Origin: an uncultured Acidimicrobiia bacterium | Lineage (GTDB): Bacteria > Actinomycetota > Acidimicrobiia > Spongiisociales > Spongiisociaceae | Direction: 5' to 3' | Length of the DNA stretch: 64,000 bases | NCBI GenBank assembly: GCA_958295745.1 | Contig: OY282370.1 | Span: 1,770,548 to 1,834,547 of the forward strand | Part shown: positions 3,404 to 52,587 of the stretch, piece after piece | Layout: each line of letters opens with the position of its first letter | Numbering within the stretch: the first letter of the stretch is position 1 | Notes under the pieces: model-generated | Database searches by the model: none | What the model was told of the DNA's origin: nothing | Seen by the model: only the letters and a program-made list of their open reading frames with translations | Made by a program: the position numbers and the translations under genes

Positions 3404-3499
3404 CCTCTGACCCGCTTGACACCCTTCTAGTGTGGGTAGGAGTTGTCCCCGGCGGGAATTTGGTTGTTGGATTCCAGCTTGGGTGTATTGCTCGGATAC

Positions 3500-3700: not shown

Positions 3701-3725
3701 GGTTCCGCCGGGCCCCTGTTTCAGT

Positions 3726-9111: not shown

Positions 9112-9183
9112 TGTCGATGTCGCTTCCCCCCGAACCGGCCGGACGCCGGATCATCCGCCTCGGCGGGAGAAAGGAAAGAAAGA

Positions 9184-32441: not shown

Positions 32442-33137
32442 CTAACTATTGCAAGGAACTTTGAGGGCCTCCCCTGTATATTGCCATTGGCTTGAACTGG
32501 CTACCTGAGAATAAAGTGTTGCTTTTGCATCAAGCTTACACTTATTACACTTAGTCCAGTGCGTTTCATCTCTTTCTCTCAAGGTTCTTATACTTTCCCA
32601 AGGCGCAAGTTTATGGCCGTGTTTCTCGGCCAGATATGTTGCCAGTTCTCGCCCTTCAGGCGGCAATGGTTTGGGTAGCTTGGGGGCAGGTTTCTTAGCA
32701 GTATCAGGACGCGGGATTCGTATTGCCCTTACCCTTTTACCTTTATGTGGTTCTGTGCTCGGAGTATCGGAAGACGGTATCTCTGGTTCCGCTTGCAGTT
32801 CTGGCTTCTCTTCAGTCGGAGTTGGTTGAGGAGTTGCCGGCTGATATTCCGGGCTGATAGGAGCAGTTGTTTCTGTAGTTGTCGGTGGGTCGGGTATTTG
32901 TTCTGTAGTGCCAGAAGGACGCGGAGCAGTAGCCTCCGTCCTTCGTTCTGTTGCTCTTTTACGGACTCTTGAGATAAAGCCGCCTCTTCGACGGCGTTGG
33001 GGTTTGGGCTTATCCTCTACTGTAGATTTTGCAATAGTACGTCTGTGTCTTCTTTTTCCGCGTTTCGTCGCCACCTCCTTGGGTGTAGGGATATAATAGT
33101 CATCGTCGGCCTGATGTCTGTCATCCGTCATGCCCAT
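32442..33137 (-). CDS. hypothetical basic/Pro-Thr-rich protein with C-terminal Cys cluster; translationally coupled to upstream Hsp70-like gene
   Basis: 231 aa. MGMTDDRHQADDDYYIPTPKEVATKRGKRRHRR..; PT-rich middle; C-terminus ..HWTKCNKCKLDAKATLYSQVASSSQWQYTGEALKVPCNS. Its ATG overlaps the Hsp70-like stop (atgggcATGAcgg). Low-GC coding DNA argues for a genuine gene. Confidence 0.45.
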   Translation of the reverse strand: MGMTDDRHQADDDYYIPTPKEVATKRGKRRHRRTIAKSTVEDKPKPQRRRRGGFISRVRKRATERRTEATAPRPSGTTEQIPDPPTTTETTAPISPEYQPATPQPTPTEEKPELQAEPEIPSSDTPSTEPHKGKRVRAIRIPRPDTAKKPAPKLPKPLPPEGRELATYLAEKHGHKLAPWESIRTLRERDETHWTKCNKCKLDAKATLYSQVASSSQWQYTGEALKVPCNS

Positions 33138-34477
33138 ATCTCCTGCGCGTATACACCGAGACCATAGGCTACCGACAGGAAGGTGTCCCTGCTACGGACT
33201 ATCTCAGGCCCAAACATGCTGTACAGCATTTGTGTAAAGGCAGGGATACTTGACGAACCCCCGGTGCGTATAACTTGGTTCACCTCCCGAGATGTTACCC
33301 CAGCTTCTTCCAAGGCCCTGAGAATGGTTTCCTTCACTATTTCCAGGTGACGGCTGATCCATTGGTTGAATTCATCACGATGTATAGATATTCGGAAGGT
33401 AAGCTCGGAAGAGTAGGGAGAATTGTATTCTATGTGTGTAGACTTATCGGCCGAAAGGGATATCTTGGCATCTTCGATGGCCGAGTAGAAGCGGCCTGCC
33501 TGCCCGCCATAGATCACATCATCGAGTAACTGCCCCGCGCGAGGATTGGCCTTTTTGATATCTGTAACAATCCCTATTGTTTCTGAATCGGTCAAAAGAT
33601 GCTTGAAACCACCAAGATTACGAAGGCGTCCTTTGAACCAAGCCGGGACAGGTAGTTGTTTGGTCCCCAGTTTGCTGTCCAGGCCAAAGTATATAGCTAG
33701 TTTGTTATCGAATATCAAAGCATCGAACATCGATCCGCCTACTGTTGCTCCTTGCATGGACAACACGTCGCCTTCGCCGTCTCGTACCTCGACGACAGCC
33801 GTATCGAAGGTCCCGCCGCCAAAGTCTACGGTGATCGTTATTCCATCTTCTAAAACCTCGTCCAGCACTGCGGCGGCGGGCTCAGGATACATTTCTACCT
33901 CTTCGAACCCGGCGCGTTCTGATGCTTGTATCAAGTGTTGTATAGCTCGTTCGTTCAGTTCTTCGGCTGCAGGGCCGACTGCGCCTACGAAGGCCACCGG
34001 GTAACCGAGCACCACCTTTTCGACTTCATATCCGGGGTGTCTGGAAGATGCTCGTTCCTTGAGATCCTGCATGACTACGGATGCGAGATCGGCCAGTTCG
34101 TAGTCTCTAGCCCAAGAGTGGGTGTGGGAGATATCCGAAGTTAGCTCCGTCTTCAAGTCCGAGATCAGTCGAGAATCTAGGCAACCCTTTCCTTGACTAT
34201 ATTGACGACAATCGGTAATGGCTTCACCACGATATATCTGAACGAGGTCACAACTGCTACAGACGGTTCGCTGATTACCGAATCTCGTGAACCGATCAAG
34301 TGCCTCCTTGCCGGCGGAACTGTCGCCGCTCCGATGGAGATAGACCATAGAGGGTAAACACGCCGGTGTCTGGGAACCGGGATAGACAGGCAATGTCTCA
34401 ACGCGATCCTCGTAGGCTATGGCGAGCGAGCTGTTGGTCGTCCCGAAGTCGATACCGTAGGCGATGGGATCTGTCAT
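33128..34477 (-). CDS. Hsp70-family actin-like ATPase, NBD-only (YegD-like)
   Basis: 449 aa. MTDPIAYGIDFGTTNSSLAIAY.. (phosphate-1), ..ITVDFGGGTFDTAVVEV.. (phosphate-2), ..VIRTGGSSSIPAFTQML.. (adenosine motif). No substrate-binding domain. Low GC. Start overlaps the SNF2 stop. Confidence 0.7.
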   Translation of the reverse strand: MTDPIAYGIDFGTTNSSLAIAYEDRVETLPVYPGSQTPACLPSMVYLHRSGDSSAGKEALDRFTRFGNQRTVCSSCDLVQIYRGEAITDCRQYSQGKGCLDSRLISDLKTELTSDISHTHSWARDYELADLASVVMQDLKERASSRHPGYEVEKVVLGYPVAFVGAVGPAAEELNERAIQHLIQASERAGFEEVEMYPEPAAAVLDEVLEDGITITVDFGGGTFDTAVVEVRDGEGDVLSMQGATVGGSMFDALIFDNKLAIYFGLDSKLGTKQLPVPAWFKGRLRNLGGFKHLLTDSETIGIVTDIKKANPRAGQLLDDVIYGGQAGRFYSAIEDAKISLSADKSTHIEYNSPYSSELTFRISIHRDEFNQWISRHLEIVKETILRALEEAGVTSREVNQVIRTGGSSSIPAFTQMLYSMFGPEIVRSRDTFLSVAYGLGVYAQEIWA

Positions 34478-37400
34478 GGGCCTTTCACCAATCCTGCCGA
34501 CAGCACTTTTACCGAAAGGCCGAACGGCTTGGCTTCAATGTCCTTCTTGGTAGCTTCGTGGTCAGATTCAAGGTCGTCCAATCGCTCTTTGCGTCTCTTC
34601 AGTAGACCTCGCCGGGCTGGAAGAACGCGCCGCTCTTCATCTGTTCCATACTGCTCCAAGGAGCTTATCAGTTCTTGCTCGGCGTTTATCTCTCGTTCCA
34701 ATCTGGCCCTCTTGTATTCGAAGATGCGGGTCTCCCTGTCGAGATCACTTTGCTTCCACAAGCTGTTGCGATGGCCAGCCTCTTGTCTGTATTTCGTGTA
34801 AGTATCTGGGACGGCTTTTAGGCTGACCTCCACGGCCCGCGACAACCAAGCCGGTGGTTTTTCCAATTTGAGATCTGTCCCGATCCGAGGCATGGACTTG
34901 ACTCGCTGCTCTTCGAGCATACCATCTTCTCCTACGAGGTGGCGTATGATAACACCGAACGGTGGATTTCCTTGTGTAGCCAGCTCATAGTATATCTCCA
35001 AGTATACATCTCTGCCGAAATCGTCTACGACCCGAAAAGAGGTCCATGTTGGAGGATTAGCCTCTATCGTTATATTCATGATAGAATCGATCAAAGGATT
35101 GCCCAAGGCTAGAAAGGGTAGGTTTTCGTTCTCTAAAGCAGTCTGTGGATCAAAGATACCCCTATATGTTTTTTTACCGCCCTTCAACCTTTTTATCAAT
35201 TTATCAGGGAGCTGAATTATTTCCCCTGCTTCTTTATGATTACTGAGCCATCCTCCAAAAAACTTTAGAGATATATCTATGTGAGCTTTGAGGTCATCCG
35301 GGGTAGCCATCCGGTCATCTTCAATTATCTTGTTTGCTATATCATGCCGGAAGCTGGCTCGGTCCATAACAAAGTTTTGCCAGGTGCGTTCGGTGATTCG
35401 AGCCTGGGAGATTTTCTTTTCTATGTCCTCTATGTATTCCTCGAAGGCCTCGTCGTCTCGGGTCAATATCAAGCGTTCGATATCCTTTTCAACCTCCCCC
35501 AGAATCGGTTCAAGCGAACCGACCGATTGTTCGAACAGTCCGATTCGTTTATCTAGCACATCCAGTATGCGTTCCTCTATTGTTCCTTGGCATGCCAGAT
35601 TGTAGATGTGAACATCTGACTTTTGTCCTATACGATCAAGTCGTCCGATGCGCTGTTCGATCTTCATGGGGTTCCATGGTAAATCGTAGTTGAACATGGT
35701 ACTCGAGAATTGAAAGTTGCGTCCCTCACCTCCTGCCTCGGTTGTTATGAGGATCTGACTGCGAGTGCGAAATGTTTGAACGGCGTTTTCTTTGGCGTCC
35801 AGGTTCATATTGCCGTTGAACATTACGACGTCATATCCGTTCAATTCTAGTGTTTGACGCAAGAACTCTTGAGTATCTATATATTGAGTAAAGATTAGAA
35901 TCTTTTGTTCGGATACATCTCGCATAGCGCGTAAGAGTACCTGTGCCTTGGAATCCCTGAGGTTCTCAAGCCTATCGACTAAGCCTTTGAGTTCCTGGAT
36001 CTCGTTCTGAGTATCTTCGAGTTCGATGATCCTTCTGAAGCCATCGCTCCAAGTATACAGGTCGATTAGACTCATAGGGTCTTCTGCCTCGCGAGCGTCT
36101 TCCAAAACATCGGGGTCATATATTTTGTCCTTGGATGTCCCATCCTCAATCGTCTGATCATCTATCCTTGCTTCGAGCCTTTCGATTCGCCGATTGAAAC
36201 CCTCGTACAGAGCATATGAACTCGATGCCAAAAGCTTTTGATATGTAACCATGGCAAATCCTACTGCTCGTTGTTTGTTTTGAAGGGCGCGATTATATCC
36301 GCGAACTATATAATCGGTAATGTCTTCGTACAATTGAGATTCTTCTTCGGTTAGATTGACTGGATATATCTTTGCTACACGGTTGGTAAAACCTCCTACT
36401 GTTGCCTTGCGGTTTCTGATCAGAATATCTGCGAAAGGATGCTCTCTGATTATTTGGCCTTCGGCTTCTGAACGTCCTATGTATTCATCTAGGTCGTAAC
36501 TCGGAAGTAGCTTTCTTAGATCCTTTTGCTCTCGGGAATCTAATTCGTCCCATCTCAAAATTTCCTGCATTATACTGTTCAGTACCGGGATATGGTCGAT
36601 CTGGTCTTCGTAATCTTCGAATGAATAAAGGCCGGGTTCGACCAGCTCGATCAACGAATACAATTCGTAGGGATGGAGCTGCATAGGTGTAGCGGTGAGA
36701 AGCAATAGACCGTATTGTTCCTTCAGCTGGTCAGCCAGTCTATAGGCGCGTGTGGTGTCCGTTTTTTTGCCAATCTTATGCCGCCGCAGTCGGTGGGCTT
36801 CGTCGAAGACCACCAAATCCCATCCGGCCTCCGTTATGGATTCGGTGTGCTTTTCCTTGCGTGCGAATTCCAACGAGCAGATCACGTTGTCTCGTTTCTT
36901 CCACGGATTGCCGCCGTCCCTCGACAAGAACTTGACCCCCGCACCGTCGATGACCTCGAAGTCTTCGTTGAATTTGGAACTCAGCTCCTGCCGCCATTGC
37001 TGGGTAAGAGAAGCGGGCGTGATTACGAGCACCCGCTTGATCAGGCCGCGCGCCCGCAGTTCCTTGATGACCAGTCCGGCCTCGATCGTCTTGCCCAGCC
37101 CTACTTCGTCGGCCAGGATCATGCGCGGGCGAGGATTCTTCGACACCACCCGGTTGGCTGCATAGATCTGATGAAGAGCGGGTTCGATCCGGGCGTTGGA
37201 CAGCCCGGCGCAGGGATCGTAACGGTAGGCATGTTGCAGGTAGAGCGCCTGAAGGCGAAGGCCGTACGGCTCGGCGCGCCCGATCACACCCCTTAGGAGA
37301 TCGTCTCGGGGGTCCTCGAAGATCAATTCCAGCTCAGATACGTCAATATATTGAATACTGTTAGGGAATGAAACTTTAGCTAAATCACCTTCAATATTCC

Positions 37401-37488
37401 TTATAATTCCTCTTTCGTCGTTCGCGGTCCATCTAACTCGGTCTCCCGGTTTGAGCGAGCGTTCGCCTCTGGAAGGGTGAGATGACAT
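34474..37488 (-). CDS. SNF2/RAD54-family helicase-like ATPase with small N-terminal beta-rich domain and ~400-aa C-terminal extension of unknown function
   Basis: ORF 34474..37989 (-). Likely start MSSHPSRGERSLKPGDRVRWTANDERGII.. (ATG rc ~37486-37488). Motifs ..ILADEVGLGKTIEAGLVIKEL.. (I), ..WDLVVFDEAHRLR.. (II), ..LLLTATPMQLHPYELYSLIEL.. (III), ..ILIFTQY..VVMFNGNMN.., ..ILITTEAGGEGRNFQ.., ..DLPWNPMKIEQRIGRLDRIGQ.. (VI). GC ~40-45%. Confidence 0.8.
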   Translation of the reverse strand: MSSHPSRGERSLKPGDRVRWTANDERGIIRNIEGDLAKVSFPNSIQYIDVSELELIFEDPRDDLLRGVIGRAEPYGLRLQALYLQHAYRYDPCAGLSNARIEPALHQIYAANRVVSKNPRPRMILADEVGLGKTIEAGLVIKELRARGLIKRVLVITPASLTQQWRQELSSKFNEDFEVIDGAGVKFLSRDGGNPWKKRDNVICSLEFARKEKHTESITEAGWDLVVFDEAHRLRRHKIGKKTDTTRAYRLADQLKEQYGLLLLTATPMQLHPYELYSLIELVEPGLYSFEDYEDQIDHIPVLNSIMQEILRWDELDSREQKDLRKLLPSYDLDEYIGRSEAEGQIIREHPFADILIRNRKATVGGFTNRVAKIYPVNLTEEESQLYEDITDYIVRGYNRALQNKQRAVGFAMVTYQKLLASSSYALYEGFNRRIERLEARIDDQTIEDGTSKDKIYDPDVLEDAREAEDPMSLIDLYTWSDGFRRIIELEDTQNEIQELKGLVDRLENLRDSKAQVLLRAMRDVSEQKILIFTQYIDTQEFLRQTLELNGYDVVMFNGNMNLDAKENAVQTFRTRSQILITTEAGGEGRNFQFSSTMFNYDLPWNPMKIEQRIGRLDRIGQKSDVHIYNLACQGTIEERILDVLDKRIGLFEQSVGSLEPILGEVEKDIERLILTRDDEAFEEYIEDIEKKISQARITERTWQNFVMDRASFRHDIANKIIEDDRMATPDDLKAHIDISLKFFGGWLSNHKEAGEIIQLPDKLIKRLKGGKKTYRGIFDPQTALENENLPFLALGNPLIDSIMNITIEANPPTWTSFRVVDDFGRDVYLEIYYELATQGNPPFGVIIRHLVGEDGMLEEQRVKSMPRIGTDLKLEKPPAWLSRAVEVSLKAVPDTYTKYRQEAGHRNSLWKQSDLDRETRIFEYKRARLEREINAEQELISSLEQYGTDEERRVLPARRGLLKRRKERLDDLESDHEATKKDIEAKPFGLSVKVLSAGLVKGP

Positions 37489-37579
37489 TTGGCTAGCCAA
37501 GAGTAGTGTTGCTCTGAGTGCCGCGGAGAAGCCGGTGCCGGGTCGCGTCAAGGTAATGGGGCGGTCTACCATGGGGGGC

Positions 37580-38731
37580 ATGCTTCGTTTCTTGACTGCA
37601 GGGGAATCGCACGGCCCCGGGCTGGTGACCATCGTCGAGGGGGTTCCGGCGGGGTTGGTCGTTACCCGTGAGGGCTTGGGTACCGAGCTGGCCCGCAGGC
37701 GTCTGGGGTACGGGCGCGGCAACCGTATGAAGCTCGAGCAGGACGAGCTGGAGATCATGGGCGGTATCCGCCACGGGCGCACCCTCGGCTCGCCGGTGGC
37801 GGTGATCATCCGCAACACCGAGTGGCCTCGCTGGCAGGAGGAGATGTCGCCGGACCCCGGCGTCCCGAGGCGGCCCATGACCACCCCCCGCCCCGGCCAC
37901 GCCGACCTGGTGGGGATGCTCAAGTACGACACCAAGGACGCCCGCAACATTCTCGAGCGGGCTTCGGCCCGCGAGACGGCGGCCCGCACCGTCGTCGGTT
38001 ACCTGGCCAAACAACTGCTGGGGAGCATCGACGTCACGGTGCTCAGCCATGTGGTGGCGATCGGCAAGGCCGTGTCGCTCTCCGAACGGCTCCCCGTCAT
38101 CGAGGACCTTCCCGCCATCGATGCTTCCCAAGTCCGGGCCTTCGGTGCCGAAACCGAGCAGGCGATGGTCGCCGAGATCGAGCGGGCCAAGGCCGACCGG
38201 GACACGCTGGGCGGGGTGATGGAGGTGCTGGTCTACGGCCTGCCGCCCGGCGTCGGATCCCACGTGCATTGGGATCGGAAGCTCGACGCCAGGCTGGGGG
38301 AGGCGTTGCTCTCGATCCAGGCCATGAAGGCGGTCGAGGTGGGCGACGGGCTGGAGACGGCCCGCCGCCGGGGTTCCGAGGCGCACGACGAGATCTACTA
38401 CGGGGACGATGGTTTCTACCGCAATACGGGCCGGGCGGGCGGCACGGAGGGCGGGATGACTACCGGACAACCCCTCCGGGTTCGGGTGGCCATGAAACCG
38501 CTCTCGACGGTGATGCGGCCCCTCCCCACCGTGGACGTGGTGACCAAGGAACCGCAGGTGGCCTTCCGGGAACGCTCCGACGTGTGCGCGGTGCCGGCCG
38601 CCGGGGTGGTGGCCGAGCAGATGACGGCGTACGTGGTTGCCCGGGAGCTCCAGCGCAAGTTCGGCGGGGACACCGTCGGCGACTTCGCGGGGAACGCCGC
38701 CGCCTATAGGGCCCGGCTCCGCTCGTTTTGA
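37580..38731 (+). CDS. aroC: chorismate synthase
   Basis: MLRFLTAGESHGPGLVTIVEGVPAGL..GRSSARETAARVVVGYLAKQLLG.. Start at ATG 37580; the ORF-track start 37535 is an upstream GTG extension. Confidence 0.9.
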   Translation: MLRFLTAGESHGPGLVTIVEGVPAGLVVTREGLGTELARRRLGYGRGNRMKLEQDELEIMGGIRHGRTLGSPVAVIIRNTEWPRWQEEMSPDPGVPRRPMTTPRPGHADLVGMLKYDTKDARNILERASARETAARTVVGYLAKQLLGSIDVTVLSHVVAIGKAVSLSERLPVIEDLPAIDASQVRAFGAETEQAMVAEIERAKADRDTLGGVMEVLVYGLPPGVGSHVHWDRKLDARLGEALLSIQAMKAVEVGDGLETARRRGSEAHDEIYYGDDGFYRNTGRAGGTEGGMTTGQPLRVRVAMKPLSTVMRPLPTVDVVTKEPQVAFRERSDVCAVPAAGVVAEQMTAYVVARELQRKFGGDTVGDFAGNAAAYRARLRSF

Positions 38732-40400: not shown

Positions 40401-42833
40401 TTATCTGTACGGTAAGGCGGGGAGGCTGGCGGCTTCGGTTATTTCTTCGGGGTGGACCAGGGCGGTCATTTCGGCGCCGGTCGTGGTTACGATTTTCACG
40501 GCCACCGGTTGCCCCGTAGGCGGGAAGGGCTGGGAGCGCATGCTGACGATCTTGTCGATCGCGTCTTTGTCGGCCTTCTTGCCCAGTTCTTTCATGAGGC
40601 GCTTGAGGTTCCGTTCCTTGCGGGCGGCGGGCAGGTAGGTGAGGGTCGAGAAGAACGACGCTCCGTCGTGGTCGGTGTCGATCATCCAGGCGGCGATCTG
40701 GTTCGGTCCTCCGGCAACGACGCCGCCGGTCGCCGGGTCGTAGGTGTCGTAGCCGATCACCTCCACCGACACCCGCCCGTCCGGTTCGGGATGGAGGATG
40801 AGGTCGGGCTCGCCCAGCATGGTGAAGGATTCATCGCCGGGAGCGTCGGCGAGCTGGGTGATCTGCAGGTCCCGGTTGGCCTGGACTTTGAGCACCTCTA
40901 CGTCGCGGTAGGCGGTTTCGATGCCGGGGGTGAACGCCCATCCCACCACGATCAGATGCTTCACGTCGGGCAGGTGTTTCTTGGCTTCGTTGGCGGCGAG
41001 GGCGGCCTGCTGGCCGGTCACCGTGGCGTCGGGGGAGGCCAGCATCACCGCTGCCAAGAACTCGTCCTCTCGGTTGGGGGACTGGCAGAGAGCCCCGTGG
41101 GTGGTGAGCTTCCCGGTGGGCCATGGTTCCAGATCGACGACCTCCAACGCCTGCCGCCCGAACGCCGTTTTCACCGTTGCGCCCATCAGCCGTTCCACCA
41201 GGTTGGCCTGTGTTTGGGCGGCGGCCGTTCCCAGATCGTCGGGCCCGGCTTCGGGTTCGTGGAACGGGACGTAGGCGTAGGGCGATTCGGCCTCTACCGT
41301 AAAGGGTGAGCACACCCGCAACACCGAGCGGTCGTGCTTCGGTTTGTCCACCAGGTAGATGGTGTTCTCCGGGTCGTCCACCTTGTCGTAGGCGAGGGTG
41401 GCGGCGGAGACGCGTTGGATGGTTTTATACACGAACCCCACCGAAGGGTCGGCGGATCCCGGTATGTCGGAGTCGACCTCCCACCAGGGGTGGACTCCGG
41501 TGAGGACGCGCTGGCGGGCTATGGAGATTGAAACGGGGGAGGTATCGCAGGTGATCCACCGTCGTCCCCAACGCTCGGCGGCATCCGCCGTTACTCCCGA
41601 TCCGCAGGTAGGGTCGAACACCAGGTCGCCCGGGTCGGAAGCCATCAGGATGCACCGCTCCACTACCGAGGCGGCAGTTTCGACTACATAACGTTTTGCG
41701 CCGGGCTGTGGACGTTTGACTGTATGCCACACGTTGTCGATGCGATGGCCTGGTACCTCGTCTTCATACCACTTCCAATGGAGGCGTCGGCCTTCAACAT
41801 CGAGTCGTCCTAGTTGGGCGAGTCGGTCCATGCCGCTAAGGCCCTGCTCCCCCGTAGGAGAGGACTCTCCACTGGCGCGTGGCCCCATACCACCCCTTCC
41901 ATTGGGGAGTGTTCGCTCCTCAGGAGTGGACACTCTCCACTGGCGCGTGGCCCCTGAGTGGTATCTGACCCCATCATACTCATACCAACCCGTTCGCCCG
42001 GTATTTGATGCCCCTTGGGAGGTGAGGTTCATTCGTCTATAAATACGTGCCCCTGCAGGTAGATTCTCGTCGGGTTCTTTCCTTTCATATCGAGTTAGTT
42101 TACGGGTAGTACCATCTGGGAGCTCCACCATGACATAAGAGGCGAAGTGTTTGACGACTTCTGCTCGTGAAAGGGGTACATAAAGTTGTCTATACTTGAC
42201 CTTTTGGCTGTCCTTGGTATACCAAAGCAGATAGCTGGCTGATTCGGGTAGGTATCTTGAAGATGAACCTCCTGTGGGCCGCCAGGTTATGGTGGCCATC
42301 TTGTTTTCGTGGCCGAACACCTCGTCGCAAACCACTGCCAGTCGATGAACATGATCGTCTCCGATCTGGAGGAACAGCGACCCGCTTTCTGCTAATAGTT
42401 CGCGTATGAGCACCAGCTTTACATATATGGCGTCCAGATATGAGTGGATGCCGTTGCGGTAGCTGTCTCGGAAGGCGGTGACAGAGGCAGGATCGCCGAC
42501 CGGCACGCCGTCCCCTTTGTTGCTGACGTTGAGGTTGTTGGTAGAAGGTTGGAAGTTACTTCTATATCCTATTCCGTAGGGAGGGTCGAAGTAGACCACC
42601 TGTACTTGACCTGCGAGGTCTTCACGGGCCAGCAACGAGGACATTACGCGAGCCGATTCACCATGTATGAGGCGGTTCTGCCAATGACCCCGGTGCCGGT
42701 AGTACTCGAAGGCGGAATGGTCGGCGGGCAGGCCGTTGAAATCATCGAACAGGTTGGGGGTTACCCCTGCTTCGGGTCGGGTCAGCTGGTTGACGAAGGC
42801 GGTGGGCAGGACCTTCTCACGGATCGACAGCAC
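40401..42833 (-). CDS. mod: Type III restriction-modification system methyltransferase (Mod), beta-class N6-adenine/N4-cytosine MTase
   Basis: 810 aa. Motif IV ..VQVVYFDPPYGIGY.. near the N-terminus; motif I ..VFDPTCGSGVTADAAERWGRRWITCD.. about 300 aa later (beta-class order). GTG start; no in-frame start further upstream before a TGA. Confidence 0.75.
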   Translation of the reverse strand: MLSIREKVLPTAFVNQLTRPEAGVTPNLFDDFNGLPADHSAFEYYRHRGHWQNRLIHGESARVMSSLLAREDLAGQVQVVYFDPPYGIGYRSNFQPSTNNLNVSNKGDGVPVGDPASVTAFRDSYRNGIHSYLDAIYVKLVLIRELLAESGSLFLQIGDDHVHRLAVVCDEVFGHENKMATITWRPTGGSSSRYLPESASYLLWYTKDSQKVKYRQLYVPLSRAEVVKHFASYVMVELPDGTTRKLTRYERKEPDENLPAGARIYRRMNLTSQGASNTGRTGWYEYDGVRYHSGATRQWRVSTPEERTLPNGRGGMGPRASGESSPTGEQGLSGMDRLAQLGRLDVEGRRLHWKWYEDEVPGHRIDNVWHTVKRPQPGAKRYVVETAASVVERCILMASDPGDLVFDPTCGSGVTADAAERWGRRWITCDTSPVSISIARQRVLTGVHPWWEVDSDIPGSADPSVGFVYKTIQRVSAATLAYDKVDDPENTIYLVDKPKHDRSVLRVCSPFTVEAESPYAYVPFHEPEAGPDDLGTAAAQTQANLVERLMGATVKTAFGRQALEVVDLEPWPTGKLTTHGALCQSPNREDEFLAAVMLASPDATVTGQQAALAANEAKKHLPDVKHLIVVGWAFTPGIETAYRDVEVLKVQANRDLQITQLADAPGDESFTMLGEPDLILHPEPDGRVSVEVIGYDTYDPATGGVVAGGPNQIAAWMIDTDHDGASFFSTLTYLPAARKERNLKRLMKELGKKADKDAIDKIVSMRSQPFPPTGQPVAVKIVTTTGAEMTALVHPEEITEAASLPALPYR

Positions 42834-42909
42834 CGGAGCGTCGAAGGTATTCTGGTCGTCGGCAGGGTCGCGGTTCCAGAAGAGAGTTGGATCAGTATTC
42901 GCATTCTCC

Positions 42910-42920
42910 GGGGGGGGGGG
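42910..42920. repeat. G11 homopolymeric tract in the res-mod intergenic region, ~78 bp upstream of the mod start
   Basis: Read directly: ctccGGGGGGGGGGGtggtaac (11 G on the + strand; poly-C in the mod transcript direction). Confidence 0.9.
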
Positions 42921-43060
42921 TGGTAACTGATAGGGGCGGCTTCGTCACCCGAGGCGCTTGCTTCTTCGGTGGGAAGGTTCACGCGGGACGCTTCCTGATG
43001 CCGGTAGGAACGCAGGGGTTTCGTTCGCTGTTTCCTTCTCCGTGCCACGGTGTCCTCCGT

Positions 43061-46012
43061 TCAATCAGTATCGCGGATGGCTTTATCGAGGTCGGTTCTG
43101 ACCCGTTGGGTTTCGTTCAGCTCCACCAATCCCCATCGGCGCAGTTCCGGGTCGATCGCCTCTGTTTTGGCCACCGAGGGAATCCAGTGCTCGATTACGA
43201 AACGTTTCTTGTGTTCCCACTTGGGGTCAGGGCGGCCCTTGCCTTCGATGATCAGGTTGAGTCCGTTGTCGAGCCTGGCTGCGAAGTCGGGAGTGTAGAG
43301 GTGCCAAACTCCGTCCGAGCGGTAGGGGATCGTCCAGCCCAGCTGAAAGTTGCGCGCCCAAGCCGTTACCCGCGGGTGCCGGTCGAGCTGCCGGGCGCAT
43401 TCCAGTTCGAGTCCGCTGTGGCAGGCGGCCAGGTTTAGTTCAGAGTGTGCAGTTTCATGTATGTAACTCAGCGTGGTCTCGAAGCGCACCTCGTCGGTGT
43501 CGCTCAGGGGAGGGAGTGCGAGCTTGGCCACCTGGATAGCGCCGCCTTTTGGAGTGGGGCGGCAGGCGGTCAGTATGCGGTCTACTACCTCCTCACGGTG
43601 GTCGGCTCGCAACAGCAGCATGGGGTCGTCTTCGGCTATGGAGATATGTGGATGGGATATCCATTGCTCAACGGCTCGGTAGGCGCCGCGGAAGAGTCCG
43701 CTCCGTCTATGGCCTGCCGCATCACCGTTGCTGAACACAAACCGGCGCACCACCATTGCCGCCAGGGTTGCCTTGGCGGTCTTCAGACGGGTGTCTTGGC
43801 GGCTGATCTCGATGATTTTCTCCTCGCCTGCCACCCCTGTGATCAACGTCATGGTGGGTATGTCACCTACGTCCACGGAGTAGGGCTCCACCAGGTCGGG
43901 GTGGAAGGTCAGGCCGTCCTGGGGCGGGATGGTCATGTACTGCTCCACCAACGGGAAGGTGATCCGGCGGTCTTGGCGGCCCGGTACGGTCTTCACGATG
44001 TGGATGGGTTTCGGCTCGGGCGGCTCGGGATCGATGGGGCCGGAAGGCATGAACTCGAAAGGTATCCCCACCACGTCGGCGTACTCGGGGTTGAGCAACC
44101 GGCGTATCCGTCCGCCGTCGTCGATCTCCCGCCAGTTCTCGTAGTCGACCCGGCGGAGCGCCCGACCCGTCACCTGTTCGCACAGCAGCTGGGTTCCGAA
44201 GCGGCGGTAGCCGAGTACGTGGGTGACGGTGCGGGTGTCCCAGCCCTCGGTGAGCATCGACACCGACACCACGCAGCGCACCCGCTCGCCCGGCCGGTCC
44301 GGTTTGCCGACCGTGTTCATCATCCGCCGCATCGCCATGACCGGATCGGCGGCTCGGTCGTCGAACCGGCCTACCTGGTCTTTCACCAGCTTGGCGAATT
44401 TGCCGGTGAGTTTCTCGTCGGTGTCGAGCTTGGAATGGACCAGCAGGGTGCGGGGATAATCTTTCCAGCCGCTCCCGTCGTCCCGGACGTTGGAGAAGAG
44501 CGGGAGTTCTCCCGGCCTGAAGGAACCGTCGCGCCCTTCGGCGCCGGCGATCCAGTCGTAGAGGGCGGCGGCGTTGGCGATGGTGTTGGCCACCACGATC
44601 ATCACCGGCGGGGTCTTGGTCTCCGCTTTCTCCCAAGTTCGGAAGGAGCGTTCGTAGTCGGCGTACAGGGCCGACATGGCGCCATCCAACGGTTCCTGCA
44701 GCGGTTCGCCGTTCGCTTTGATGCGCTTGTGATGCGAGTTGCCGTACAGGTTGCGCCATACGGTCTGGTCGGCGGAGGCGTCGTCGTCGCAGGGCACCCG
44801 CGGCACCTTGACCAGCCCCGACTCGATCGATTCCATCAGCCCGAAGTCGGACACCACCCATTCGAAGAGCCGGGGTCGCGCCTTGGAAGTGGTGTCGATC
44901 CACATGGGGGTGGCGGAGAAGTCGTATACGACGCTCGCTTGGCCGCGGCGGTCGTCCATCCGTCCGAGGTGTCCGGCGTCCCGCAGGGCGCGAATGGCGT
45001 TGAACCAGACGGCCGCCGCCTTGGAGTCGACGTCCTTTCCGCCCTTGTGACCCTTCTGGCCTGGAAGCCAGCAGTGATGGGCCTCGTCGTTGATCACCAC
45101 CAGGTCGCCGTAGGCGGAGGAAGGGCGGATCAGATCCCTGAGCACTCGTTCGGCGGCGGCTTGGCGCGACTCGCGGCCGGTGTCGTAGTCGACCTCCAGC
45201 AGCTTGCGGGCGTGTCCTGTGGCGCCGAGCAGGTCGCGGGGCTGGAAGGCCTGCCAGTTGACGACGGCCACCTTCGCCCGGTTGAGACTGCGGCGCAGCG
45301 GCCCCGGCGGGACCAGCCCGTATTCGTCGTAGATGTTGTCGGGGTGGGTGGGGCGCAGCACCGCCAGGCGGTCGCGGACGGTGAGGCCGGGGGCGATCAC
45401 GGCGAAGCGCTGGCCGTGATGCAGGTTCCGGCTTCGGGAAGTGCGGACGGCGTTGAGGGTCTGCCAGGCGATCAGCATCGCCATGACCACCGTCTTGCCG
45501 GTGCCGGTGGCCTGCTTGACGCAATGGCGGACGATCCCGTCGTTGTACCTGCGGGACAGTTCCTCGATGCTTCGGCGTTCCGGCGTCCCTCGGGTGGCGA
45601 CCTCCCGCAACCAGATCAGGGTTTCGATGGCTTCCTGCTGGGCGAAGAACGGCTGCTTCCGGCATTGCTCGCCGTCAGCCCAGTGGCGCAGGAGCTGCCC
45701 GGTGACGCGGGTGGCGCCCGGATAACCGTTGTTTCGCCAAGTCTTCACCTTGCCCCGGATGGCGTTGATGGTCTCGTTCAGGTCCTGGGTGGTCAGCTCG
45801 AGAGCGATCTGCGGATCGGAGTCCTTGGCGTCTTTGGGCGTGGACCGGACCGCCATGGATGGACGGCGGCCCGGCACGGGAAGGCGGCCCTTCATCGCCC
45901 GGCCCAGCCGATCCAGCCCCCAGTACCGGTCCGGTTCTTCGTAGGGGGAGCACAGCACCGGGTCTTGCGACGGGTCGTTGCCGACCCGGGTTGCCCTGCC
46001 GTTTTCGCTCAT
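43061..46012 (-). CDS. res: Type III restriction enzyme Res subunit (SF2 helicase-nuclease)
   Basis: 983 aa. ..VKQATGTGKTVVMAMLIAWQTLN.. (motif I), ..DLVVINDEAHHCW.. (DEAH), ..VLGYRRFGTQLLCEQVTGRALRR.. (motif VI), plus a C-terminal endonuclease region. Confidence 0.8.
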   Translation of the reverse strand: MSENGRATRVGNDPSQDPVLCSPYEEPDRYWGLDRLGRAMKGRLPVPGRRPSMAVRSTPKDAKDSDPQIALELTTQDLNETINAIRGKVKTWRNNGYPGATRVTGQLLRHWADGEQCRKQPFFAQQEAIETLIWLREVATRGTPERRSIEELSRRYNDGIVRHCVKQATGTGKTVVMAMLIAWQTLNAVRTSRSRNLHHGQRFAVIAPGLTVRDRLAVLRPTHPDNIYDEYGLVPPGPLRRSLNRAKVAVVNWQAFQPRDLLGATGHARKLLEVDYDTGRESRQAAAERVLRDLIRPSSAYGDLVVINDEAHHCWLPGQKGHKGGKDVDSKAAAVWFNAIRALRDAGHLGRMDDRRGQASVVYDFSATPMWIDTTSKARPRLFEWVVSDFGLMESIESGLVKVPRVPCDDDASADQTVWRNLYGNSHHKRIKANGEPLQEPLDGAMSALYADYERSFRTWEKAETKTPPVMIVVANTIANAAALYDWIAGAEGRDGSFRPGELPLFSNVRDDGSGWKDYPRTLLVHSKLDTDEKLTGKFAKLVKDQVGRFDDRAADPVMAMRRMMNTVGKPDRPGERVRCVVSVSMLTEGWDTRTVTHVLGYRRFGTQLLCEQVTGRALRRVDYENWREIDDGGRIRRLLNPEYADVVGIPFEFMPSGPIDPEPPEPKPIHIVKTVPGRQDRRITFPLVEQYMTIPPQDGLTFHPDLVEPYSVDVGDIPTMTLITGVAGEEKIIEISRQDTRLKTAKATLAAMVVRRFVFSNGDAAGHRRSGLFRGAYRAVEQWISHPHISIAEDDPMLLLRADHREEVVDRILTACRPTPKGGAIQVAKLALPPLSDTDEVRFETTLSYIHETAHSELNLAACHSGLELECARQLDRHPRVTAWARNFQLGWTIPYRSDGVWHLYTPDFAARLDNGLNLIIEGKGRPDPKWEHKKRFVIEHWIPSVAKTEAIDPELRRWGLVELNETQRVRTDLDKAIRDTD

Positions 46013-47957: not shown

Positions 47958-49580
47958 CTACCCCTCTAGCTGTTTCAGGTATTCGGTGCCCTTGGCTGTT
48001 GAGCGGTAGCGTTGGAGGCGGCTTCGGGGTTTGTCTGGGATGGTCATTTCGATCAGGCCTGATCGTAGGGCGGGTACTAGATAGGCTTCGCGGAAGTGCT
48101 TGATGTCTTTCAAGCCGAGCAGCCTTCTTAGTTGTTGACTGGTCATTTCCCCTGAAATCACATTGAGTAGCTTGACTTCCCCGGTGACTTCCCCGGGTGA
48201 ACTCAGGGGGTTCCTGGTTTCTTCAGATGACTTCCCCGGTCGGTTGACTTTGGGGGTTGACTTGGGGGGTTGACTTTGGGGGTTGACTTGGGGGGTTGAC
48301 TTGGGGGGTTGACTTGGGGGGTTGACTTCCCCGGTGACTTCCCCGGTGGTCTTGGTCGCCGTATGTGAGCGCACTTCGGGGTTGGGTCGAAAGACGACGG
48401 TAAAGAAGCTGTTGGCCTCGAACTCCGGCAACGGGCAGTCCTGTTCCCGGGCGTCGTTCTGGATACGCCGGATTCCGGTGCCCGCCTTCTCGATGAAGTC
48501 GATGCGGTGGAGCAGATCGGCGAGTAGCGGATTGCGCCTGATGCTCTTGTGGCCGAGCTCGGCCATGGTGATACCTTTGGGCAGGCTACCGGGGCTGACC
48601 ACTTCGATCCGGTCGGGGTAGAGCTCGACGAAGACGTTGGCGCCTTCTATGAACCAGTCCCGGTGCATGACCGCGTTGGTGATGGCCTCCCGCAACGCCT
48701 TCATCGGGTACTCGGGGATGTTCTGCCTCCTCAGGCCCTCGATCCGGTAGGCGAGGCGGGTGTTGCGCTCGATGAACCGCATCGACTCCTCGATGTCGGC
48801 CGCGATCCCGCCGTTGAAGTCCTTGCGATCCAGGATGTGAACCTTGTTGGGGTCGCGCGCCAGCAGGCAGGTGATGTACGCCTGCGAGAAGAACCGCCGC
48901 ACCTCCTTGGCGAAAAACAACACGCCCGCGTTGCGGAACAGCAATCGGTCGCCGTCCTGCTCGGCGGCTTCGATGTTCGTCAGTACATCCTCGACGGGCG
49001 GCCGGCCGGTGATGCCGGACATCTCCAGCCAGGTTCTGTACTTGTCGAAGTCGAAGTCATCGGGGTACTTGAAGCGCGGACAGGGGGTGAGGTCGAACCG
49101 GATCACTCCCTCGCTTCGGAAGAAGTTGCGTATTTCGTCTCTGCTGAGCTTTTGGGTCATGGCGCCCTGACGCCAGAAGAAACCATCGCTGCACTGCACC
49201 GGCTTGCCGTCGCTTTCCCGAACATGGACGACGATCACCTCATTCACCGGTTCCACCACGATTTTTACCGGAGGATCACAGTTGTGTGCGATGTTCTGGA
49301 TCCGAGCGCGCAGGGCGTTGGAGTCCTGAACCCCGGCCACCGCGCCGTTGTCGCTTACCCCCAAGAGGATCCTGCCGCCGATAGTGTTGGCCAAGGCCGC
49401 CATCTCTCTCGCCAACGAGGACGAGAGTCTCTCCTTGAACTCGAGGGTTGCGCCCTCACCCTGCTGGATGAGCATTGCGAGGTCGGCAGGAGTCATGTCG
49501 CTTCTCCCAACCTCGGGCGGCGTGAGTTCGTCAGGAGGCGGCGGGTTCGTACCATCCGGAGCCGAAGATGAGGCCGTCAT
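47958..49580 (-). CDS. AlbA_2 (Schlafen-like) / HATPase_c_4 ATP-binding putative DNA-binding protein with C-terminal wHTH
   Basis: 540 aa. ..ATLEFKERLSSSLAREMAALANTIGGRILLGVSDNGAVAGV.. (AlbA_2), ..GSLPKGITMAELGHKSIRRNPLLADLLHRIDFIEKAGTGIRRI.. (HATPase_c_4), linker with (GEVTGEV)-flanked PPSQPPKSTPQVNPQSQPPKSTPKVN repeats, C-terminal ..QQLRRLLGLKDIKHFREAYLVPALRSGLIEMT.. (wHTH). Confidence 0.6.
   Translation of the reverse strand: MTASSSAPDGTNPPPPDELTPPEVGRSDMTPADLAMLIQQGEGATLEFKERLSSSLAREMAALANTIGGRILLGVSDNGAVAGVQDSNALRARIQNIAHNCDPPVKIVVEPVNEVIVVHVRESDGKPVQCSDGFFWRQGAMTQKLSRDEIRNFFRSEGVIRFDLTPCPRFKYPDDFDFDKYRTWLEMSGITGRPPVEDVLTNIEAAEQDGDRLLFRNAGVLFFAKEVRRFFSQAYITCLLARDPNKVHILDRKDFNGGIAADIEESMRFIERNTRLAYRIEGLRRQNIPEYPMKALREAITNAVMHRDWFIEGANVFVELYPDRIEVVSPGSLPKGITMAELGHKSIRRNPLLADLLHRIDFIEKAGTGIRRIQNDAREQDCPLPEFEANSFFTVVFRPNPEVRSHTATKTTGEVTGEVNPPSQPPKSTPQVNPQSQPPKSTPKVNRPGKSSEETRNPLSSPGEVTGEVKLLNVISGEMTSQQLRRLLGLKDIKHFREAYLVPALRSGLIEMTIPDKPRSRLQRYRSTAKGTEYLKQLEG
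48243..48328. repeat. imperfect 14-bp tandem repeat (gttgacttgggggg x ~6) inside the Schlafen-like CDS; unit length not a multiple of three
   Basis: Read directly: gttgactttgggg|gttgacttgggggg|gttgactttggggg|gttgacttgggggg x3. Flanked on both sides by ggtgacttccccgg(tgacttcccc). Encodes the 14-aa-period QVNP(P/Q)SQPPKSTP segment. Confidence 0.85.
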
Positions 49581-52443
49581 GGCGGATGACCCAGGAGTGT
49601 TTTTGTTCTAGTTGGTCGGTGGCTGGGTTGCGCCGGACGTAGTCCACCCATCTGCCTGACTCGGTGGCGTCGGATAGTTCTTGGCCGTAGTTTTTGCCGT
49701 TGACGTCGATGCGGGTGGTTGTCTTGGTTCCTACTCGTTCTGGGTTGGGGGCTAGGGCGATGGTGGTTCCGTCTTCGATGATGAAGATGTACCAGGGGCC
49801 GTCGATGCTGTCGGTGGAGTTGTAGTGGTCGATGGTTGCTTGGCGGCCGTCTTGGTTGTAGCGGTTGATGGCTTGTTGTACGAAGTATTGGGTGTAGGCG
49901 GGTGGGTCGGCTTTGGTGGGCGGTGCCGGGGCTTCGTCTTCGTACCATCCGGAGCCGAAGATGAGGCCGTCTCGTTTTATCACCCAGGAGTGTTTCTGTT
50001 CTAGTTGGTCGGTGGCTGGGTTGCGCCGGACGTAGTCCACCCATCTGCCTGACTCGGTGGCGTCGGATAGTTCTTGGCCGTAGTTTTTGCCGTTGACGTC
50101 GATGCGGGTGGTTGTCTTGGTTCCTACTCGTTCTGGGTTGGGGGCTAGGGCGATGGTGGTTCCGTCTTCGATGATGAAGATGTACCAGGGGCCGTCGATG
50201 CTGTCGGTGGAGTTGTAGTGGTCGATGGTTGCTTGGCGGCCGTCTTGGTTGTAGCGGTTGATGGCTTGTTGTACGAAGTATTGGGTGTAGGCGGGTGGGT
50301 CGGCTTTGGTGGGCGGTGCCGGGGCTTCGTCTTCGTACCATCCGGAGCCGAAGATCAGGTTGTCGTGGCGGATGACCCAGGAGTGTTTCTGCTGGTTTTG
50401 GTCGGCGGCCGGGTTGAGGAACACGTAGTCGACCCATCTCCCGACTTCGGTGGCGTCGGCTATCTGCTGTCCGCTGGTTTGGCCGTAGACGTCGGTTGTG
50501 TGGGTGATGTTGGTGTTGCGCAGATCGGGTCGGGTGGCGTGGGCGATGATGTTTTCGTCTTCGATGATGAAGATGTACCAGGGGCCGTCGATGCTGTCGG
50601 TGGAGTTGTAGTGGTCGATGGTTGCTTGGCGTCCGTTTTGGTTGTAGCGGTTGATGGCTTGTTGTACGAAGTATTGGGTGTAGGCGGGTGGGTCGGCTTT
50701 GGTGGGGGGTGTTGGGGTTTCGTCTTCGTACCATCCGGAGCCGAAAATCAGGTTGTCGTGGCGGATGACCCAGGAGTGTTTCTGGCGGTTCTGGCCGATG
50801 GCGGGGTCGAGGAACACGTAGTCCACCCACCTGCCGGCTTTGGTGACGTCGGCTATCTGCTGCCCGTAGGGCTTGCCGTAGATGTCGGTGCGGTAGGCGC
50901 TGCCGGTGCCGATCCGTTCAGGCAGGGTGGCGTGGACGATGACTTCGTCGTCTTCGACGATGAACATGTACCAGGGGCCGTCGATGCTGTCGGTGGAGTT
51001 GTAGTGGTCGATGGTTGCTTGGCGTCCGTTTTGGTTGTAGTGGTCGATGGCTTGTTGTACGAAGTATTGGGTGTAGGCGGGTGGGTCGGCTTTGGTGGGG
51101 GGTGTTGGGGTTTCGTCTTCGTACCATCCGGAGCCGAAGACGAGGCCGTCGTGGCGGATGACCCAGGAGTGTTTCTGGCGGTTCTGGCCGATGGCGGGGT
51201 CGAGGAACACGTAGTCCACCCATTCACCTGCCTCGGTGGCGGCGGCTAGCTGCTGTCCGCTGGGTTCGCCGTAGACGCCGGGTGTGTGGGTGATGTTGGT
51301 GTTGCGCAGATCGGGTCGGGTGGTGTGGGCGATGATGTTTTCGTCTTCGACGATGAACATGTGCCACTGGCCGTCGATGCTGTCGGTGGAGTTGTAGTGG
51401 TCGATGGTTGCTTGGCGTCCGTTTTGGTTGTAGTGGTCGATGGCTTGTTGTACGAAGTATTGGGTGTAGGCGGGTGGGTCGGCTTTGGTGGGGGGTGTTG
51501 GGGTTTCGTCTTCGTACCATCCGGAGCCGAAGACGAGGCCGTCGTGGCGGATGACCCAGGAGTGTTTCTGGCGGTTCTGGCCGATGGCGGGGTCGAGGAA
51601 CACGTAGTCCACCCATTCACCTGCCTCGGTGGCGGCGGCTAGCTGCTGTCCGCTGGGTTCGCCGTAGACGCCGGGTGTGTGGGTGATGTTGGTGTTGCGC
51701 AGATCGGGTCGGGTGGTGTGGGCGATGATGTTTTCGTCTTCGACGATGAACATGTGCCACTGGCCGTCGATGCTGTCGGTGGAGTTGTAGTGGTCGATGG
51801 TTGCTTGGCGGCTGTTTTGGTTGTAGTGGTCGATGGCTTGTTGTACGAAGTATTGGGTGTAGGCCGGTTCGTCCGACTTGGCGGGGGCGCGGCCCGCGGC
51901 GAGCAGAGCTTGGTTGCCCGCCCGCAAGTATGCCGATAGGTCGGCGCGGGTGGCCCCTTCCGGGAAGGCGCGGCCTATGACGGCGGCGGTATGGGCGGCG
52001 GTGACGGTCCGGTCGGGCCGGAAGGTTCCATCGGGGTAACCCAAGAACCATCCGCGGGCAGCGGCGTATCCGATGTCGGCCCCCCGTGCGTGGTCGGCGG
52101 GAACATCGGAGAACGTGGGTAGTTCTATGGTTGTGGCGGCGGGGGAGGCGAGGGCCTGGTTGCCCGCCCCTGCGTAGGTGGCCAGGTCGGCGCGGGTGGC
52201 CCCTTCCGGGAAGGCGCCGCGGACGGCGGCGATGGTCTGGGCGGTGGTGACGGTCTGTCCGGGCCGGAAGGTTCCATCGGGGTAACCCAAGAACCATCCG
52301 CGGGCAACCGCGTATTCGATGTCGGCCCGCTGCGGATGGTCGGCGGGAACATCGGAGGACCCGGAGTCCCCGTTCGCATAGCCGGCGCCCGCGGAGACAA
52401 CGAGGAAGAGCGCGAGCGCGGCTGCGGGGAGTTTACGTTTCAT
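49531..52443 (-). CDS. cell-surface protein: signal peptide, two SLH domains, six near-identical ~127-aa tandem repeat domains
   Basis: ORF 49531..52524 (-). Likely start MKRKLPAAALALFLVVSAGAGYA (AGAGG RBS). SLH-like ..FSDVPADHARGADIGYAAARGWFLGYPDGTFRPDRTVTAAHTAAVIGRAF.. twice. Then six repeats ..PPTKADPPAYTQYFVQQAI(D/N)(H/R)YNQ(N/D)GRQATIDHYNSTDSIDG(Q/P)W(H/Y)(M/I)FI(V/I)ED..SWVIRHDGL(V/I)FGSGWYEDE(T/A)P.. Confidence 0.6.
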   Translation of the reverse strand: MKRKLPAAALALFLVVSAGAGYANGDSGSSDVPADHPQRADIEYAVARGWFLGYPDGTFRPGQTVTTAQTIAAVRGAFPEGATRADLATYAGAGNQALASPAATTIELPTFSDVPADHARGADIGYAAARGWFLGYPDGTFRPDRTVTAAHTAAVIGRAFPEGATRADLSAYLRAGNQALLAAGRAPAKSDEPAYTQYFVQQAIDHYNQNSRQATIDHYNSTDSIDGQWHMFIVEDENIIAHTTRPDLRNTNITHTPGVYGEPSGQQLAAATEAGEWVDYVFLDPAIGQNRQKHSWVIRHDGLVFGSGWYEDETPTPPTKADPPAYTQYFVQQAIDHYNQNGRQATIDHYNSTDSIDGQWHMFIVEDENIIAHTTRPDLRNTNITHTPGVYGEPSGQQLAAATEAGEWVDYVFLDPAIGQNRQKHSWVIRHDGLVFGSGWYEDETPTPPTKADPPAYTQYFVQQAIDHYNQNGRQATIDHYNSTDSIDGPWYMFIVEDDEVIVHATLPERIGTGSAYRTDIYGKPYGQQIADVTKAGRWVDYVFLDPAIGQNRQKHSWVIRHDNLIFGSGWYEDETPTPPTKADPPAYTQYFVQQAINRYNQNGRQATIDHYNSTDSIDGPWYIFIIEDENIIAHATRPDLRNTNITHTTDVYGQTSGQQIADATEVGRWVDYVFLNPAADQNQQKHSWVIRHDNLIFGSGWYEDEAPAPPTKADPPAYTQYFVQQAINRYNQDGRQATIDHYNSTDSIDGPWYIFIIEDGTTIALAPNPERVGTKTTTRIDVNGKNYGQELSDATESGRWVDYVRRNPATDQLEQKHSWVIKRDGLIFGSGWYEDEAPAPPTKADPPAYTQYFVQQAINRYNQDGRQATIDHYNSTDSIDGPWYIFIIEDGTTIALAPNPERVGTKTTTRIDVNGKNYGQELSDATESGRWVDYVRRNPATDQLEQKHSWVIRHDGLIFGSGWYEPAAS
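49540..51900. repeat. ~380-bp coding tandem repeats (6 copies, adjacent copies ~90-99% identical) within the surface-protein gene
   Basis: Long identical DNA stretches recur, e.g. ccatccggagccgaagatgaggccgtc...gttgtagtggtcgatggttgcttggcg... Clear in the six-frame track as repeated ORF fragments on several frames. Confidence 0.8.
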
Positions 52444-52587
52444 CGGCAACACCTCTTGAATCAAATCCTGACTGGCCTTATTGAGCATACCAAAGACGGT
52501 TTGCATGCCAAAGACGGCTTGCAACGAGGGGGGCGGGTATGAAACCGCAGGAATATCTCTGATCGGATGCGCTCGGGACGGCGTGAT

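Follow-up and report, generated by a model that had tools for sequence, protein, structure and literature searches.

Single-Cache domains of the sCache_2 family serve as sensor domains of chemoreceptors such as PscD (sensor domain PscD-SD, 5G4Y/5G4Z), Adeh_3718 (4K08), a Vibrio parahaemolyticus receptor (4EXO/2QHK) and Helicobacter pylori TlpB (3UB6-9). Each of these receptors has one Cache domain. The gene described here lies on the minus strand of a 64,000-nucleotide stretch of contig OY282370.1 from an uncultured Acidimicrobiia bacterium (the window) and codes for a protein with six Cache domains in tandem. Its modules share with the chemoreceptor domains the Pfam family, the fold (template modelling score, TM, 0.68-0.78 for the model of module 1), an extracytoplasmic location and the positions of a Tyr/His/Tyr/Lys set. 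Sequence identity to them is just 14-20%. The amino terminal helix of the module is short and folded back in two pieces, a Gly replaces the back-wall Phe, which suggests a larger or different pocket, and the protein carries neither flanking transmembrane helices nor a HAMP or MCP output.

Two other groups of surface proteins have a comparable organization. The calcium-channel alpha2delta subunits and CACHD1 of animals are also extracellular, with several Cache domains and no output of their own, and alpha2delta subunits bind small ligands. The likeness holds at the superfamily level: these are membrane-tethered eukaryotic channel auxiliary subunits whose double-Cache domains are interleaved with VWA, not homogeneous tandem arrays. 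Fibrillar adhesins and other tandem-repeat surface proteins likewise combine an anchor with a chain of repeats and linkers, and their copy number varies between strains by recombination within the repeats. As a rule their repeats form a stalk of Ig-like or beta-sandwich domains with a single adhesive tip, whereas the window protein has an anchor-like amino terminus and repeats but no separate tip domain, each repeat being itself a pocket-bearing PAS-like domain. Searches of the literature on Cache domains with sponges or Chloroflexi, on tandem or stand-alone Cache domains and on Cache combined with SLH retrieved no account of such proteins, the only related statement being one on an enrichment of Cache domains in Thaumarchaeota of sponges (PMC7848895). 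The domain is known, while its array architecture and apparent non-sensory use are not described. The reading preferred here, tentative and with slightly more doubt than confidence, is that the gene product, a secreted, probably wall-retained string of six sCache_2 domains, may work as a multivalent surface binding protein for anionic ligands.

The mechanically called open reading frame spans 49531-52524 on the minus strand and its best start is the ATG at 52443, because a GAGGTG ribosome-binding site sits just upstream. This start reproduces exactly the coordinates 49531-52443 given in an original prediction made from the sequence alone, which also described the protein as giant; its length is only 970 amino acids. 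The product opens with MKRKLPAAALALFLVVSAGAGYA, a typical Sec signal, followed by two SLH-like repeats and six tandem modules of 131 amino acids (Table 1). The amino terminal signal sequence, with no further hydrophobic segment in the translation, indicates an extracytoplasmic location. The protein collection contains the identical product as P0001, there with an ATG farther upstream as its start. No contig gave an exact match to P0001, and close variants served for locus comparison instead.

Table 1. Position of the Cache-array gene and its features in the window.
Feature	Position	Strand	Basis or remark
Coding sequence, 970-amino acid protein	49531..52443	-	Open reading frame list; start from ATG and ribosome-binding site; stop codon 49531-49533
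Ribosome-binding site GAGGTG, 6 nt before ATG	52450..52455	-	Read from sequence
Signal peptide, amino acids 1-23 (MKRK, hydrophobic core, AGYA|N)	52375..52443	-	Translation; cleavage site predicted by reading
SLH-like repeat 1, amino acids 30-110 (SLH motif, extra helix, conserved TRADLA helix)	52114..52356	-	Pfam SLH, alignment A4, model
SLH-like repeat 2, amino acids 111-193	51865..52113	-	Pfam SLH, subfamily profile, alignment A4, model
Cache module 1, type A	51472..51864	-	PscD-equivalents His, His, Tyr, Lys
Cache module 2, type A	51079..51471	-	99.5% nucleotide identity with module 1
Cache module 3, type B	50686..51078	-	Complete Tyr-His-Tyr-Lys
Cache module 4, type C	50293..50685	-	Complete Tyr-His-Tyr-Lys
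Cache module 5, type D	49900..50292	-	Tyr-Leu-Tyr-Lys, Arg-Arg at PscD Trp145
Cache module 6, type D, terminal	49534..49899	-	3 amino acids remain before protein end
Hypervariable pocket-lid segment (module amino acids 41-85; module 1 example)	51610..51744	-	Recurs every 393 nt

With Tandem Repeats Finder one array is detected, at 49546-51868, with 5.9 copies of a 393-nt period, 90% matches and a score of 3112, and it is not explicable by chance. When the protein is divided at each recurrence of the motif AYTQYFVQQAI, six units result, each composed of a domain of ~119 amino acids and a 12-amino acid Pro/Thr linker of DETPTPPTKADPP type, and profile matches agree with the six head-to-tail modules proposed earlier. 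The module length of ~127 amino acids and the 90-99% identity between adjacent DNA copies proposed at the same time need correction: the period is 131 amino acids, and adjacent units are 99.5, 87.5, 86.8, 82.4 and 96.2% identical in nucleotide sequence, in order. Near-identity of the copies holds only for the pairs 1/2 and 5/6, amino acid identity between units ranging from 62 to 99%. The repeat gene has a GC content of 0.60-0.61 (window 50001-52000) against 0.67-0.69 in its flanks, and its strand asymmetry is extreme (GC skew +0.32, AT skew -0.41). A likely cause of this deviation is the repeated codon set, a foreign origin of the gene being another possible source.

The module is a bona fide sCache_2 domain by sequence and by fold, as three lines of evidence show. 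Pfam profiles match well above their curated cutoffs, dCache_2 (PF08269) with 1.5e-34 and 120 bits (cutoff 26.5) over six stretches and sCache_2 (PF17200) with 7.1e-26 and 91.4 bits (cutoff 25). A profile made from alignment A1, which comprises 53 diverse family modules, retrieves five solved structures from the PDB, 4K08 (Adeh_3718), 5G4Y (PscD-SD), 3UB6 (TlpB) and 4EXO/2QHK (Vibrio receptor), all of them single-Cache sensor domains of chemoreceptors. The AlphaFold model of module 1 (predicted local distance difference test, pLDDT, 96.7; predicted TM 0.90) has two amino terminal helices, five strands and a lid helix, in keeping with a PAS-like alpha/beta core with an antiparallel sheet. Its top Foldseek match is 4EXO (3.8e-8, TM 0.77), followed by 4K08, 5G4Y and 3UB6-9. 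The Cache/PDC-like character suspected in the original prediction is borne out, and the module, then considered unassignable, has a family; its match is a known sensor domain in an unusual use and not a well-known adhesin domain. A scan of the protein against NCBIfam gave sub-threshold noise alone (e.g. FlgE, 42.7 bits against a cutoff of 801), so the architecture has no curated family model. A heme-binding PAS/Cache domain was considered but is rejected, cysteine being absent from all modules, which makes a CxxCH motif impossible. Other weak Pfam matches (Acyl-CoA-dh_C, Cons_hypoth95, HTH_29 and others) were discarded, either for want of an accepted stretch or as repeated weak hits that the tandem copies produce.

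A Cache-type transmembrane sensor would have membrane helices on both sides of the Cache domain and continue into a cytoplasmic output domain, while the window protein ends 3 amino acids past module 6. MCPsignal, HisKA, HATPase, GGDEF and HAMP domains are absent from the protein and from the 128 homologues scanned. Because it has neither a transmembrane nor a cytoplasmic signalling part the protein cannot signal alone, and Cache domains without a signalling part most likely make the array one that binds rather than senses.

The PscD structure provides the reference for a binding pocket. In PscD the ligand carboxylate is held by Tyr90, His103, Tyr143 and Lys156, the ligand is sandwiched between Trp92 and Trp145, and Phe126 forms the back wall; ligands known for sCache_2 domains are C2-C3 carboxylates (PMC5062169). 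Transfer of these positions by HMMER profile alignment into 691 modules from 134 family proteins finds the first Tyr in 629, the His in 524, the second Tyr in 645 and the Lys in 636. The complete set is present in 508 modules (74%), including modules 3 and 4 of the window protein, and the position of Phe126 is Gly in 664 (96%). Modules 1 and 2 have His at the Tyr90 position, while modules 5 and 6 have Leu in place of His103 together with the Arg-Arg listed in Table 1. This latter residue set, type D, is no product of decay, because it is kept in the terminal module of every species in the clade.

Four pocket types can be distinguished among the six units, which follow one another as A A B C D D. 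The first 40 residues of the units are 93-100% identical in DNA among all types, while residues 41-85, which correspond to strands 1-2 plus the loops and helix that build the PscD pocket lid, share just 64-73% nucleotide identity between types. Synonymous divergence (dS) rises from 0.02-0.05 in the first segment to 0.3-0.6 in the central segment, showing that types A to D are old and that the module boundaries are being homogenised. Recent duplications are A-A and D-D only. The recent expansion proposed earlier therefore stands for these two pairs and not for the four types, type D being moreover conserved across species. The ratio of nonsynonymous to synonymous substitution (dN/dS) between types is 0.7-1.3 in the central segment and 0.35-0.6 in the carboxyl terminal one, while orthologous modules are under purifying selection (dN/dS 0-0.44).

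The amino terminal region is less easily interpreted. In canonical SLH trimers Trp13, Gly29 and Arg43 of the TRAE motif contact the pyruvylated wall polymer (PMC6081394). The window protein has the Pfam SLH motif (PF00395, 54.9 bits, cutoff 20.8, two stretches), including its GxxxG (GWFLG), in common with SLH-anchored S-layer or S-layer-associated proteins such as B. anthracis Sap and P. alvei SpaA, and a subfamily profile matches across 51865-52356. Each repeat of ~80 amino acids combines the SLH motif with an extra helix and a (T/S)RAD(L/M)A helix (alignment A4). Compared to Sap and SpaA there are two repeats and not the three of an SLH pseudo-trimer; the Gly29 equivalent is kept (GWFLG), those of Trp13 and Arg43 are Pro/Ala and Thr/Ala (TRAE becoming TTAQ or TAAH), and a conserved Arg occupies the displaced TRADLA motif ~20 residues past the TRAE position. 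A model of the region (pLDDT 84) finds SLH structures alone among PDB folds, but the matches to 3PYW and SpaA-SLH are weak (E 6e-3, TM 0.29-0.36) and the model does not superpose on the trimer.

Units of this kind, ~75 amino acids long, are found singly or doubly at the amino terminus of small secreted proteins (P0281, P0292, P0296, P0300, P0311). They read FSDVxxDHPQ..DI.YA...GWF.GY.DGTF.PD, then an extra helix, then RAFPEG.TRADLA, with neither Trp13 nor the canonical TRAE Arg and with an invariant Arg in the displaced TRAD motif. A search with the SLH-like region returned proteins of at most 282 amino acids only and is uninformative on large passenger domains that share the anchor. The pair is probably a divergent SLH-like wall-binding unit that would retain the protein at the wall. 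The signal peptide and SLH-type amino terminus of the original prediction are both present, while the anchoring it took for granted is uncertain. In a related locus of Ca. Spongiisociaceae (L004, OZ241842.1) a gene at 2861-9280, between a Phosphodiest gene and a three-module Cache-array gene, codes for a highly repetitive protein of 2139 amino acids with three canonical carboxyl terminal SLH motifs (TRRQ, TRAD, TRAQ). The presence of this SLH protein next to a Cache array suggests that the locus gathers wall-bound proteins.

A protein search returned at least 903 relatives of the window protein. The best 120 are all arrays, of 3-12 modules, and 119 of them stop 0-35 residues past the last full-length module match, the other one stopping in a partial module. 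A profile search among 1.84 billion representatives (E<=1e-30) found 371 clusters with up to 16 modules, the family as a whole ranging from 2 to 16 modules per protein. The amino termini vary, with a lipoprotein-like Cys, a hydrophobic helix followed by a coiled coil (these two types being assigned by a heuristic), collagen-like, PPC or FN3 regions, while the SLH-like one is confined to the small clade of the window protein. Further domains in the longer members are LRR, Ig plus Laminin_G_3, PPC, subtilase plus RCC1, or 5'-nucleotidase. As judged from their sequences, poly-Cache arrays form a large, previously undescribed family with surface anchors and never a signalling output.

The host genomes belong mainly to Dehalococcoidia and other Chloroflexota, and further to Ca. 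Spongiisociaceae, other Acidimicrobiia, Caldilineaceae and Limisphaerales. The nearest genomes, with nuo genes 87-89% identical to those of the window and a syntenic locus, are of Ca. Spongiisociaceae, a family named from sponges (PMC11384910). A family member is also present in bin125, a metagenome-assembled genome from the sponge Aplysina aerophoba (PMC5649159). Loci were searched with a profile built from a 12-sequence module alignment, the 53-sequence one being too diverse. Neighbour families are not conserved among the 130 open reading frames that flank the gene in 65 loci, nor in four annotated contexts, and the commonest (serine recombinase 6, PhyH 6, ABC_tran 5) provide no functional signal. 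In these related loci (L007-L083) the neighbours include DDE transposases (4, 3 and 3), PIN toxins (4) and serine recombinases (6 of 130), and this slight excess of recombinases and transposases hints that the family genes sit in mobile or variable regions.

These features can be combined in a model for the function of the window protein. Six single-Cache domains joined by Pro/Thr linkers would be displayed on the surface of a sponge-associated Acidimicrobiia bacterium, retained by the SLH-like pair. Each module would offer one small pocket built on the carboxylate-binding Tyr/His/Tyr/Lys set of chemoreceptor Cache domains, and four kinds of pocket distributed over six positions could give avidity for anionic ligands. 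The ligand would most probably be repeated carboxylated groups on a sponge polymer or matrix, small acids being less probable. Such an adhesin- or lectin-like role is favoured because adhesion-type domains co-occur in the family, because tandem arrays give avidity, because most pockets would be far from the membrane, and because no transporter or receptor is linked to the gene. The modules evolve as cassettes, unequal recombination at the near-identical boundaries adding, removing and reshuffling them (AABCDD, ABDDD, AADD) while the pocket-lid segments stay distinct.

Several observations weigh against this model. The SLH-like pair, devoid of Trp13 and Arg43 and with two repeats instead of three, could fail to anchor, so that the protein might instead be released. 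The four-residue set is incomplete in modules 1/2, where His stands for Tyr, and in modules 5/6, where Leu replaces His, and pocket residues were mapped by profile alignment and not on a superposed complex. The central dN/dS is compatible with relaxed constraint as well as with diversifying selection. Finally, one relative adjoins an ABC importer and three adjoin a nucleobase-type Xan_ur permease, an arrangement that also fits nutrient capture.

Nutrient capture is the principal rival explanation, possible though rather doubtful. The array would trap small organic acids or similar solutes and pass them to membrane transporters, like tethered substrate-binding domains. The conserved carboxylate-binding residues and the C2-C3 carboxylates bound by known sCache_2 domains are in its favour, as are the relative P0008, placed divergently beside a five-gene branched-chain-type ABC importer, the relative P0012, which adjoins a Xan_ur permease, and the ABC_tran (5), Peripla_BP_6 (3) and Xan_ur_permease (3) matches among the 130 neighbours. 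Transporter linkage is however not conserved and there is none in the 64-kb window. With up to 16 modules per anchor, or with a wall-bound SLH-like anchor, most pockets would stand tens of nanometres off the membrane, and the fusions to LRR, Ig, LamG and collagen domains found in the family suit adhesion better. To our knowledge there is also no docking surface, which counts against delivery to a transporter.

The Cache fold could alternatively be a mere stalk or spacer of an S-layer-associated or fibrillar protein, its pockets being non-functional. An amino terminal anchor, Pro/Thr linkers, tandem repeats and copy-number variation are all features known from fibrillar adhesins (see PMC8286594), and the neighbour of the array gene in L004 is the repetitive SLH protein described above. 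Such a purely structural role is nonetheless unlikely: the pocket residues are kept across hundreds of divergent modules (all four in 74%, the back-wall Gly in 96%), the type D variant is conserved across species and orthologous modules are under purifying selection.

Still less likely is an accessory sensor, in which the array would bind a signal and then contact a separate membrane receptor, as solute-binding proteins do with some chemoreceptors and kinases. Cache domains are classically sensory, and solute-binding proteins that signal through partners are known (see PMC8050422). Neither the window nor the 25 families matched most often by the 130 neighbours include a receptor, kinase or chemotaxis gene, the sole case being a histidine kinase 4 kb from P0008 in a different operon, and the variable number and order of modules argue against a fixed docking geometry.

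Variation in module number between strains can be followed at the locus itself. In ENA sample ERZ19489113 this locus is present on three contigs, where the nuo operon together with a Phosphodiest gene borders one end and an AlbA_2/HATPase_c_4 gene the opposite end. Contig L001 has the module order AABCDD and aligns collinearly to the window for 22 kb at 98.3% identity, through the entire array and without an indel. Contigs L003 (ABDDD) and L002 (AADD), from the same species, share 97-98% identity with the window, the former having cleanly lost one module and the latter two. The copy-number polymorphism anticipated from the repeat structure is thus real, with 6, 5 and 4 modules at the same locus, while the collapse of the window assembly feared at the same time is unlikely because L001 independently carries the collinear six-copy array. 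A third assembly (P0122) gives the same 991-amino acid call, more distant relatives and species have 3, 4 or 5 modules, and the contig names (ptg...l) look like those of a HiFi long-read assembler, as judged from naming conventions. That the six-copy array or its shorter variants are mis-assembled repeats is very improbable: 393-nt repeats at 82-99.5% identity can collapse in short-read assemblies and P0121, with 4 modules, and P0002, with 5, do sit on shorter contigs, but L001, P0122, the apparent long-read origin of the contigs and the 3-5 modules of more distant species speak against it, and the variant contigs show 2-3% divergence from the window in their flanks, as expected of other strains and not of collapsed copies.

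The region downstream of the Cache gene has features of its own. The adjacent gene at 47958-49496, on the minus strand, codes for a protein with SLFN_AlbA_2, HATPase_c_4 and Fic-like_C domains. This gene probably starts at the internal ATG 49496 and not at 49580, where it would overlap the Cache gene. Within it, at 48242-48328, the 13-nt unit CCCCAAGTCAACC is repeated about six times, a length that keeps the frame only in multiples of three units. Two frames are open across the repeat, and the unit count is about six in all four strains, small indels occurring in one of them. Positions 40401-46012 on the minus strand contain a Type III restriction-modification pair, with a methyltransferase at 40401-42833 (PADLOC MTase_III, 1.4e-126) and a ResIII-type enzyme of 983 amino acids at 43061-46012 (weak REase_III match). 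A low-GC island lies at 32442-37989, also on the minus strand (GC 0.49-0.55 against 0.65-0.70 around it). It codes for a 1171-amino acid SNF2 helicase (PADLOC BrxHI 2.7e-112, HmaA 3.9e-86, DrmD), a 449-amino acid Hsp70-like protein and a 231-amino acid protein without match, and is possibly an acquired defence island of unclear type.

The existence of hundreds of clusters in which a sensor domain has no output implies a second, non-sensory role of this domain as a repeated surface binding module. The locus offers a clean natural case of concerted evolution at repeat boundaries combined with divergence preserved in the functional segment, and copy-number alleles of the array are visible inside a single metagenome. 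A broader proposal, speculative and more doubtful than the binding function itself, is that poly-Cache arrays might be a hitherto unrecognised class of receptors on bacterial surfaces that target the animal host, shared horizontally among unrelated sponge symbionts (Chloroflexota, Acidimicrobiia, Verrucomicrobiota). A sensor domain would have been turned into a recombining cassette set of lectin-type pockets for attachment to, or recognition by, the sponge matrix, and its specificity would be tuned by the number and type of modules at the level of the strain. The family is abundant in sponge symbionts, where the molecules of bacterial persistence are largely unknown, and its members are concrete, expressible candidates for ligand screening.

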